A stretch of DNA of 32,000 nt. It comes from Candidatus Lokiarchaeum ossiferum (GTDB lineage Archaea; Asgardarchaeota; Lokiarchaeia; Sigyniarchaeales; Promethearchaeaceae). Positions 13,582 through 14,557 of the stretch are shown in pieces. The notes under the pieces are model-generated. The model was not told where the DNA came from. It did no database searches and worked only from the letters and a program-made list of their open reading frames with translations. The stretch spans positions 4,770,001 through 4,802,000 of the forward strand of contig CP104013.1 in NCBI GenBank assembly GCA_025839675.1, in the 5' to 3' direction. Numbering within the stretch: position 1 is the first letter of the stretch; each line of letters begins with the position of its first letter. The translations under genes and the position numbers were made by a program.

Positions 13582-13590
13582 TTTTTTTTT
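13582..13590 (+). terminator. Oligo-T (T9) tract after the OsmC-like gene, overlapping the gelsolin gene stop codon
   Basis: The T9 run starts 3 nt after the stop at 13579. Positions 13589-13591 are the complement of the TAA stop of the convergent gene. Confidence 0.35.
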
Positions 13591-14557
13591 ATTCTTCTCT
13601 ACGCCAAACGGCACCACATTTGCCACAGTTATATTTTTTAGCATAGATTGGGGGATAATCATAAATCAATCGTTCCCGATCTTCTTGTTCGCGGATCATA
13701 TTGTGATTATAATTACCGCATCTTGGACATTGATTTCTGCCTTCGCCTTGTTGGATCAGCATCCCATTCTTTGTTTCCACTGGTGCCTTTGGGGTTGTTT
13801 GAACAGGTGGTTTTACCTCCGCTGCTGGAGTGTCAATTGATTTCACCTCGCCTGCAGGTTCTTGGTTATCAAAAACTTCCGCATTTAAATCAACAGTTTC
13901 CCGATCTTGGGTTGGTAATTTTCCTTTGAAGATTTCCAAAAACTCCTCATCATCTGCTCCCTCAATGAATACTTTGGGACGTTGATCTCCGGCACGATCA
14001 ATATCAAACTCTCGAGCATATTGGATGGCTTTGACCTTTTCTTTAACGTTACTGTCTTTTCCTTGCCATACCCATATATCTACGCCCAAATCGGCGATAA
14101 AACAGTCTTCGCTATCCAATGACTTTTTTTCAAATGGGACTTGAACATATTTCATTGCGTTAATTCCATTGTATTCTTCACTTGAAATGCGATAAAGAGC
14201 GTTTACATGATTTGCTTGATCTGCAAATTCCCCTGTTTTTACATCCTTCAACATCGTTTTTGCGAGATTTTTATCAAGTATTTTCAAATTCTTCAATCTA
14301 GCCAAAAATTCGGGGGCTTCATCACCTTCATCATATGTGATGATTTTTGCGGCACCGTTAAACACTTTTCCATCATCGATCCGACGGGCTTCAACTGCCG
14401 CAGTTCCTTTTTCATCGACAGAACATTTGGATCCTAACCAGACATATATCTTCTTTTCTTCTTCGTTAACGACTAAGTATGCATCCCCAGTCGTAAAAAT
14501 CGGTTTATCAATAAGCTCTAAACTACCTTCTTTAATCATAAATATTTTATTTTCCAT
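13589..14557 (-). CDS. Two-domain gelsolin-family protein with Pro-rich linker and C-terminal zinc ribbon
   Basis: 322 aa. Gelsolin domain 1 is GDAYLVVNEEEKKIYVWLGSKCSVDEKGTAAVEARRIDDGKVFNGAAKIITYDEGDEAPEFLARL. Domain 2 is LDSEDCFIADLGVDIWVWQGKDSNVKEKVKAIQYAREFDIDRAGDQRPKVFIEGADDEEFLEIFKG. Both match the gelsolin repeat pattern (D.yil...iyvWqG..s...Ek..A...a..l......v...eg.Ep..F...F). The linker is PAAEVKPPVQTTPKAPVE. The ribbon is CPRCGNYNHNMIREQEDRERLIYDYPPIYAKKYNCGKCGAVWRREE. Confidence 0.85.
   Translation of the reverse strand: MENKIFMIKEGSLELIDKPIFTTGDAYLVVNEEEKKIYVWLGSKCSVDEKGTAAVEARRIDDGKVFNGAAKIITYDEGDEAPEFLARLKNLKILDKNLAKTMLKDVKTGEFADQANHVNALYRISSEEYNGINAMKYVQVPFEKKSLDSEDCFIADLGVDIWVWQGKDSNVKEKVKAIQYAREFDIDRAGDQRPKVFIEGADDEEFLEIFKGKLPTQDRETVDLNAEVFDNQEPAGEVKSIDTPAAEVKPPVQTTPKAPVETKNGMLIQQGEGRNQCPRCGNYNHNMIREQEDRERLIYDYPPIYAKKYNCGKCGAVWRREE

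Follow-up and report, generated by a model that had tools for sequence, protein, structure and literature searches.

The window considered here is a stretch of 32,000 nucleotides from the genome of Candidatus Lokiarchaeum ossiferum (contig CP104013.1, positions 4,770,001 to 4,802,000). The gene in question, at 13589..14557 on the reverse strand, encodes a two-domain gelsolin that ends in a small four-cysteine zinc ribbon, referred to below as the Zn module. We propose that the protein is a homologue of the lokiarchaeal gelsolin Loki2DGel, and that its Zn module is portable and docks proteins onto the Lokiactin network; to this explanation as a whole we assign a probability of about 55%. The gelsolin-linker-Zn architecture itself is already known, having been published in 2022 with a deposited structure. 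New in the present analysis are the range of partners to which the module is fused, its occurrence in an operon and in fusions with a putative pseudoGTPase, the clustering of Zn and gelsolin genes, and the probable presence of the free module in a Lokiactin co-immunoprecipitation (co-IP). Actin regulation in Asgard archaea is thought to work almost only via profilins and gelsolins, and what is at stake here is how that machinery is positioned.

The gene is complete, with an ATG start and 322 codons, as indicated by the open reading frame (ORF) call and by an exact-sequence look-up, which identified the product as UYP47817.1 / NEF87_004102 of strain B-35. A second assembly contains the same protein with one difference, G236S. 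The identifier table of a 2025 preprint (10.1101/2025.11.30.690169) equates UYP47817.1 with GNAMCCOK_04136 and names it 'B35_2DGel1' (2DGel1 below). The Pfam family Gelsolin (PF00626) matches the protein in two stretches, with E=5.2e-24 and 84 bits against a cut-off of 21. Repeat D1 comprises residues 5-95 (14273..14545, reverse strand) and is supported by PF00626 and by the way it aligns with Loki2DGel and gelsolin G1 chains, while repeat D2 comprises residues 115-212 (13922..14215, reverse strand), matches gelsolin G2 chains, and has its best PF00626 stretch at residues 138-194. The connector between them contains the tetrapeptide LKDV (residues 103-106; 14240..14251, reverse strand), which reads as the Asgard WH2-like motif, a four-residue connector motif defined by Akil et al. 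(2022, Commun Biol 5:890; PMC9433394) and in the preprint (10.1101/2025.11.30.690169). A first-pass annotation of this DNA, made from the letters alone, had described an ORF at 13589-14557 with two gelsolin repeats and an appended zinc ribbon, and had taken the protein for a two-domain Asgard gelsolin; its repeat coordinates agree with those found here.

Among proteins of known structure, the best sequence match by a wide interval is chain G of PDB entry 7WHG, annotated as 'Lokiarchaeota gelsolin (2DGel)' (residues 4-320 against 2-334, E=2.6e-77), followed by villin and gelsolin chains at about 1e-35. Judged from this alignment, UYP47817.1 is the L. ossiferum homologue of Loki2DGel. The homologues Loki2DGel and MKD1-2DGel are actin-binding proteins whose disassembly of filaments is controlled by calcium (PMC9433394), and by analogy the core of UYP47817.1 is expected to have inherited a severing or capping activity.

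The gelsolin core and the Zn module are joined by an acidic linker (residues 213-263; 13769..13921, reverse strand; isoelectric point (pI) 4.5) that is rich in Pro, Glu, Ala, Val and Thr, as the first-pass annotation had noticed for its Pro, Val and Thr content. Across 106 homologues, mean identity to UYP47817.1 is 54% for D1, 71% for the D1-D2 connector, which is the most conserved segment, 62% for D2 and 51% for the Zn module, compared with only 20% for the linker. The linker also varies in length, from 44 to 141 residues in a set of 49 homologues, and its commonest residues are E, P, A and K. Because it is so much less conserved than its surroundings and so variable in length, we conclude that the protein consists of a folded core and a folded module on a flexible tether. 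In Loki2DGel, the first 10-20 residues of the C-terminal extension contact actin (PMC9433394). The fusion is under selection and is not an assembly or frameshift artefact: clusters with 43-87% identity to UYP47817.1, more than 100 in number, align over 98-100% of its length and terminate in the Zn module, so that the stop between gelsolin and ribbon that would betray an artefact is not found in the orthologues, and the same architecture was expressed as a single polypeptide for PDB 7WHG.

The Zn module occupies residues 264-322 (13592..13768, reverse strand) and has a pI of 8.5. It is 59 residues long; the CxxC...CxxC ribbon had been recognised correctly in the first-pass annotation, which gave its length as 58 residues and printed a peptide one residue shorter still, a trivial discrepancy. 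Its first zinc knuckle is C277-P-R-C280 (13718..13729) and its second C311-G-K-C314 (13616..13627), both on the reverse strand and both at invariant cysteine columns. Between them lies a long β-hairpin, identified from the predicted strands and from conservation, whose tip is formed by D300-Y301-P302-P303 (13649..13660, reverse strand) and whose return strand carries Y305, K307 and K308. In an alignment of 31 diverse modules, in which Y301 becomes Y38 in module numbering, the four cysteines, R11, P15, Y38 and G52 are invariant in all 31 sequences, and G18, E27, D30, P39, Y42, K44, K45, G49, W55 and R56 are conserved in at least 90%. The pattern is far beyond chance. The median pI of the modules is 9.0, and the conserved Tyr, Lys-Lys and Trp-Arg positions are found on the hairpin and the last strand. 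AlphaFold2 predicts strands at module residues 4-6, 25-36, 41-48 and 54-57, giving a long hairpin with the D-Y-P-P sequence at its tip (predicted local distance difference test score (pLDDT) 82.4).

Scans of the module against Pfam and NCBIfam gave only sub-threshold matches, to generic zinc ribbons at 10-20 bits. PF01096 scored 13.8 bits against a cut-off of 21, TIGR01384 / TFS_arch 17.3 bits against 64.75 (E=0.006), and the transposase zinc ribbons (IS1595, IS66, Cas12f TNB) 15-17.5 bits against cut-offs of 25-27, which rules out a ribosomal or transposase zinc ribbon as the identity of the module. The module profile matched 1qyp with E=1.9e-5, the match being divided between two short stretches, and Foldseek, one of the checks proposed in the first-pass annotation, returned TFIIS/Rpb9-type folds as its best results (1tfi, Rpb9, RPA12 and Rpp21), with template-modelling scores of 0.47-0.56 at E=0.6-2 only. 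The acidic D-E of TFIIS-type hairpin tips is not present, D-Y-P-P followed by I-Y-[AG]-K-K being found instead. No similarity of the module to the FYVE, PH or C1 families was detected in the Pfam scan or the fold search. We class the module as a zinc ribbon of the general TFIIS/TFS/Rpb9 shape, to which it is weakly similar, and not as a member of that family. The statement of the first-pass annotation that its inter-knuckle motif IYDYPPI[FY]AKKY belongs to no named zinc-ribbon family is borne out, and the match to a well-known family that would have spoken against a new module did not appear in Pfam or NCBIfam at threshold.

The module had, all the same, been seen before. The profile matches residues 279-334 of 7whg_G, the Zn domain of Loki2DGel, with E=3.5e-26. 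Akil et al. described gelsolin-Link-Zn as the commonest architecture among Loki two-domain gelsolins (2DGels), with two gelsolin domains, a 'Link' of 69-79 residues and a '(Cys-X-X-Cys)2' Zn domain. They reported that homologous Zn domains are widespread in Loki and exclusively C-terminal, in 2DGels as well as in unrelated multidomain proteins; that small proteins made of the Zn domain alone exist; that the domain has an extended loop which is conserved and bears a tyrosine at its tip; and that it is not consistently found outside Loki. They speculated that it binds a cellular feature or complex (PMC9433394). The module of UYP47817.1 has the (CxxC)2 arrangement, the Tyr-tipped loop and the extreme C-terminal position, together with sequence similarity to the Loki2DGel Zn domain. 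Since the architecture was described in that paper and UYP47817.1 is listed as B35_2DGel1 in the 2025 preprint, the fusion that the first-pass annotation treated as carrying an unrecognised module is not a new finding. [quoted passage not shown]

We carried out an exhaustive search of 1.84 billion protein representatives with the module profile, in place of a word-indexed search with the stand-alone protein, which had given a single uninformative match. The profile search found 334 representatives at E<=1e-3, of which 173 have E<=1e-10. In the best 147 of them only 5-21 residues separate the last cysteine from the C-terminus. A scan of GTDB species genomes with the pattern Y[GA]KK[YFW]xCGxC gave 293 confirmed stretches, and all 80 retained loci come from Promethearchaeota (Asgard) genomes, including MK-D1 and Harpocratesius, although some of the metagenome-assembled genomes (MAGs) bear the submitter labels 'Thor' or 'Odin'. 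The portability of the ribbon that the first-pass annotation had suspected is thus confirmed, by stand-alone genes as well as by many unrelated fusions. Coiled coils form the N-terminal part in 52 of 124 proteins; other partners are gelsolin, TPR and LRR domains, transmembrane segments followed by Pro-rich stalks (N-terminal transmembrane segments occur in P0137, P0150 and P0153), and a family of about 200 residues called c1 here. One cluster, P0142, has a bona fide Ras-family domain fused to the module (E=2.2e-26).

The top profile match, P0122, was rejected as a family member, since it aligns only over the hairpin segment and lacks the cysteine knuckles. It is a giant repeat protein of 4135 residues, in which residues from about 3600 to 3760 contain many copies of '..IYPPIFLQKF..'. 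Divergent members of the Zn family were also noticed on short coiled-coil proteins, for example with the pattern CPKCGA..EVEDKSRLLSY.PRRIYAKK..C.KC, at 4941-5387 of locus L027, 6155-6670 of L035, 7617-7946 of L050 and 7889-8161 of L043 (all on the reverse strand of the locus), and the Zn family extends beyond what the genome-scan pattern describes.

An association with Lokiactin in the cell is indicated by the 'CoIP Lokiactin' sheet in the supplementary table of the preprint, in which enrichment is given as log2(actin/IgG) (10.1101/2025.11.30.690169). 2DGel1 (GNAMCCOK_04136, 36.6 kDa) co-immunoprecipitates with Lokiactin, having a log2 value of 3.97 (P 0.0015, adjusted P 0.015); Lokiactin itself has 4.44, and 2DGel1 is listed directly below it among the L. 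ossiferum proteins, although several other proteins have higher ratios. The same sheet contains GNAMCCOK_04132, a protein of 7.37 kDa detected with 4 peptides and 59.7% coverage at log2 1.74 (P 0.0046, adjusted P 0.029). Its enrichment is higher than that of the 'Arf' highlighted by the authors (log2 1.34), and the text of the preprint mentions neither GNAMCCOK_04132 nor zinc. The Lokiactin-associated 'Arf' (GNAMCCOK_04696, UYP48373.1) has a mass of 38.1 kDa, whereas an Arf domain by itself would be about half as large.

GNAMCCOK_04132 is most likely the product of a second Zn gene in the window, at 9086..9274 on the forward strand, which encodes a stand-alone module of 62 residues. The mechanical ORF, already listed as a separate ribbon gene at 9074-9274 in the first-pass annotation, starts at GTG 9074, has 66 codons and is 63% identical to the fused module; ATG 9086 is probably the true start, because the 66-residue form is missing from the protein collection. 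The computed mass of the 62-residue product is 7.37 kDa, equal to that of the GNAMCCOK_04132 entry, and four of its tryptic peptides total 37 of 62 residues, or 59.7%, the coverage reported. The gene lies four genes before 04136, and window ORFs that follow the same order agree in mass with 04139 and 04141. No tryptic peptide is common to the 62-residue protein and the gelsolin. Gene order, mass, peptide coverage and the lack of shared peptides thus lead to the same assignment, and if it is right, the free module is expressed, and in vivo it associates with the Lokiactin complex either directly or indirectly.

The stand-alone gene keeps company with gelsolin genes in other genomes also. It is separated from the gelsolin-Zn gene by 4.3 kb in the window, 4.2 kb in a close relative (L001), 2.4 kb in MK-D1, 150 bp in Harpocratesius and 85 bp in another MAG. 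In 4 genomes, a gelsolin-domain gene lacking the Zn module (278-288 residues) is divergent to a 161-residue coiled-coil-Zn gene, and at seven loci paired coiled-coil-Zn genes are found 1-2 kb apart. Four different gene arrangements point the same way, to a linkage between Zn and gelsolin genes.

A further association is with c1, a family restricted to Promethearchaeota and comprising 92 clusters. In 19-20 of the 24 loci that have a stand-alone Zn gene of about 64 codons, c1 is found upstream of the Zn gene, on the same strand and at a distance of 64-171 bp. At L025, L032, L044, L061, L071 and some 15 further loci, c1 occupies a position roughly 100-700 nt upstream of the match at 4001. The surrounding block is conserved and runs, in order, from an EamA transporter gene, which has the opposite orientation, through c1, the Zn gene and one or two multi-transmembrane genes of about 238 codons to a small gene with HhH and zinc-ribbon domains. 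Moreover, c1 is joined to the module through a linker in the fusions P0167 and P0172. A Pfam scan of c1 gave no match; its sequence profile reached the GTPase Arl3 in the PDB only with E=0.28, and hhalign comparisons with Ras and with P0142 were negative. Its AlphaFold2 model (pLDDT 84, predicted template-modelling score 0.82), by contrast, matches structures of Rho, Rac and Rab with E~2e-9 and template-modelling scores of 0.6-0.7. The P-loop (G1), DxxG (G3) and NKxD (G4) motifs are degenerate, and from the model we read c1 as a Ras-fold pseudoGTPase. Looking for c1 by name in L. ossiferum and MK-D1 brought up no homologue, and the stand-alone Zn genes of these two organisms are not adjacent to c1.

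L. ossiferum has a second two-domain gelsolin, NEF87_002567 (P0041; 269 residues, 29.9 kDa), which shares the gelsolin core. Its mass fits GNAMCCOK_02589, and it is probably the protein named 'B35_2DGel2'. Together with eight related clusters (P0028, P0030, P0034, P0036, P0037, P0039, P0042 and P0051; 256-277 residues), it has no Zn module. The chain ends instead in KKEKK, a Gly/Ser-Leu-Cys turn with a conserved cysteine, and then about 20 hydrophobic residues, which are predicted to form a tail anchor. Since the two cores carry different C-terminal elements, it is this element that appears to set the location of a gelsolin, which suggests that the C-terminus decides where each of them acts.

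On the explanation that we prefer, residues 1-212, with their two gelsolin repeats and the WH2-like LKDV connector, form a core that, by transfer from the homologues, binds actin, and the flexible, fast-evolving acidic linker tethers it to a 59-residue ribbon with a Tyr-Pro tip and a basic return strand. The ribbon would be neither catalytic nor nucleic-acid-binding, but a C-terminal docking module of Lokiarchaeia-type Asgard archaea, which attaches whatever is fused upstream of it to the Lokiactin filament itself or to a factor associated with it. Gelsolin would be docked in this way, as would the other fused partners: dimeric coiled coils, TPR and LRR scaffolds, Ras-type GTPases or pseudoGTPases, and stalks anchored in the membrane. 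For 2DGel1 this would mean a second, linker-tethered attachment point of the severing or capping core, and the free 62-residue paralogue may occupy, or compete for, the same site. A more far-reaching version is possible but clearly less probable: that the Zn ribbon is the signature docking domain of an as yet unrecognised actin-associated proteome in Lokiarchaeia, recruiting hundreds of proteins that mostly lack other annotation to Lokiactin filaments or to a filament-bound hub, with the free 62-residue protein as competitor or regulator. Coiled-coil crosslinkers and tethers, membrane-anchored stalks, TPR and LRR scaffolds, Ras-type GTPases and the Ras-fold pseudoGTPase would be among the proteins recruited. 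If this were true, the module would have the part in archaea that the headpiece, CH and WH2 modules have in diversifying the actin-binding proteins of eukaryotes. Should the module be a docking tag shared within the Lokiactin network, its sequence could be used to list the archaeal proteins associated with actin, and it would be simple to explain that L. ossiferum has kept two gelsolin cores, near-identical but ending in a Zn ribbon in one case and in a tail anchor in the other.

Several points weigh against docking on Lokiactin. The isolated Zn domain of Loki2DGel neither co-sedimented with rabbit filamentous actin (F-actin) nor bundled it (PMC9433394, the text of which refers to Supp. Fig. 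6b for this). This result disfavours a simple generic binding to F-actin, and if the filament is the target, the interaction must therefore be specific for Lokiactin or indirect. The co-IP is one preprint data set, in which the enrichment of the free Zn protein is modest, and GNAMCCOK_04132 was assigned from gene order, mass and coverage rather than from its sequence; the free module could, in addition, have been pulled down via another Zn protein or via gelsolin rather than actin. The counts of gene clusters are drawn from related genomes and are not independent, and zinc binding is predicted from the four cysteines only.

The first of the other explanations to be considered is that the basic, aromatic-tipped module binds lipid head groups or a membrane protein, and so places gelsolin, coiled-coil tethers and GTPases at the membrane, as prenyl tails, tail anchors and FYVE or GRIP domains do in eukaryotes. 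We regard this as improbable, though it is the strongest of the alternatives. It would account for the median pI of 9.0 and the conserved Tyr, Lys-Lys and Trp-Arg positions, for the tail anchor that 2DGel2 has at the module's position, and for a Ras-family GTPase that bears the module where eukaryotic GTPases bear lipid anchors. A coiled coil with a C-terminal zinc finger resembles EEA1, and in most Lokiarchaeia the stand-alone Zn genes lie in a conserved block between the EamA transporter gene and the multi-transmembrane gene or genes. However, conserved gene order among related MAGs is weak as evidence, the carriers P0137, P0150 and P0153 already have transmembrane segments of their own, the module has no similarity to FYVE, PH or C1, and membrane binding does not by itself explain why a free soluble module should be enriched with Lokiactin. 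A second possibility is that Zn modules bind each other and so network all the proteins tagged with them, or that the module is an autoinhibitory latch on the gelsolin core, comparable to the C-terminal latch of full-length gelsolin, with the free paralogue as competitor: the free module co-purifies with a complex containing gelsolin-Zn, a stand-alone copy is kept near the gelsolin-Zn gene in several genera, and the long flexible linker would permit folding back. A latch nevertheless leaves more than 300 unrelated carriers unexplained, and the last 109 residues of Loki2DGel are invisible in its crystal with actin, hence not stably docked on the core there (PMC9433394); for homotypic binding, no evidence of oligomerisation has been reported. 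Overall we consider this pair of mechanisms unlikely, more so than membrane binding.

The association with c1 raises the question of whether the module binds a Ras-superfamily GTPase or pseudoGTPase as the real organiser, its association with actin being secondary. The position of the Zn gene directly downstream of c1 in most stand-alone loci, the c1 fusions P0167 and P0172, the resemblance of the c1 model to Rho, Rac and Rab, and the true Ras-family domain fused to the module are all compatible with this, as is the enrichment of 'Arf' in the same Lokiactin co-IP (10.1101/2025.11.30.690169). On the other hand, c1 was not detected by name in L. ossiferum or MK-D1, whose stand-alone Zn genes do not adjoin it; its G1, G3 and G4 motifs are degenerate and no similarity to Ras is detectable at the sequence level; and in the fusions it occupies the cargo position like any other partner, which argues for a client rather than the receptor. 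We think it quite unlikely that a GTPase is the organiser. The least supported alternative, and one that we consider very improbable, is a nucleic-acid-binding ribbon that links actin regulation to DNA or RNA, as the first-pass annotation had allowed when it called the ribbon a partner-binding or nucleic-acid-binding module. In favour of such a role, the module resembles, weakly and below threshold, the zinc ribbons of TFIIS/TFS/Rpb9, of transposases and of ribosomal proteins, its pI is basic, and there is an HhH and zinc-ribbon gene in the conserved stand-alone neighbourhood. Against this, no family threshold was reached, D-Y-P-P replaces the acidic hairpin tip of TFIIS, the partners are cytoskeletal, scaffold, GTPase and membrane proteins with no nucleic-acid enzymes among them, and the free module is apparently enriched with actin. 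Of the two options in that annotation, the nucleic-acid part has the types of partner and the apparent co-purification with Lokiactin against it.

Among the other genes of the window, the OsmC, TFB, RNase III-like and SIR2-like genes showed no functional link, and they are near gelsolin-Zn only in the closest relative, L001, not in more distant genomes. The RNase III-like protein (199 residues; 12360-12959, reverse strand) has an N-terminal Cys-rich stretch of the form CxxC...CxxC at 12840-12938, which is unrelated to the Zn module. A protein of 916 residues with a SIR2_2 domain (9577-12327, forward strand), possibly defence-related, is encoded where the stand-alone Zn gene is separated from the gelsolin block; L001 has three different small genes at that position, and the SIR2_2 gene is therefore a variable insertion. 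Upstream of the gelsolin gene, a β-propeller protein of 555 residues (15912-17579, forward strand) matches BBS7, BBS2, BBS1, FG-GAP and Itfg2-type propellers, and its gene adjoins the TFB and gelsolin genes in L001 as well. A protein of 769 residues (17716-20025, reverse strand) combines an adaptor-complex mu-homology domain (Adap_comp_sub, E=5e-11, above the cut-off) with DUF11. GNAMCCOK_04139, to which it fits, is an abundant protein of the proteome and is not enriched with Lokiactin (log2 0.09).

Among characterised systems, UYP47817.1 is most like Loki2DGel (KKK44901.1, 7WHG chain G) and MKD1-2DGel, with which it shares the order D1, WH2-like connector, D2, charged linker and (CxxC)2 Zn domain with a Tyr-tipped loop. 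It differs from them in coming from the cultured L. ossiferum, a different species; in its linker, which has 51 residues compared with 69-79 and is rich in P, V, T and E rather than predicted to be helical; and in its connector, LKDV, where LVDV was reported for Loki GC14_75. It is also known from co-IP in vivo, whereas Loki2DGel and MKD1-2DGel are known from biochemistry. The overall plan resembles the headpiece proteins villin, supervillin and dematin, in which a gelsolin-type core is followed by a flexible linker and a small folded C-terminal module that provides a second attachment to the actin system. The headpiece, however, is a three-helix bundle that binds F-actin directly, while the Zn module is a four-cysteine β ribbon with no homology to it, and in the sole reported test did not bind rabbit F-actin (PMC9433394).

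In sequence and predicted fold, the module comes closest, though weakly, to the ribbons of TFIIS, TFS and Rpb9 (PF01096; 1TFI, 1QYP), its best neighbours outside its own family, which likewise have four cysteines and a long β-hairpin between the knuckles. Its tip, D-Y-P-P followed by Y-[GA]-K-K, is not the catalytic acidic D-E, and its context is cytoskeletal rather than that of RNA polymerase. In the way it is used, the module may be compared with the FYVE domain of EEA1, the GRIP domain of golgins and CAAX tails. These have no relationship to it in sequence or fold, and the comparison is one of analogy only, but each is a small C-terminal element, placed behind a flexible or coiled-coil stalk, that sets the location of otherwise unrelated proteins. 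The GRIP domain also depends on an invariant tyrosine.

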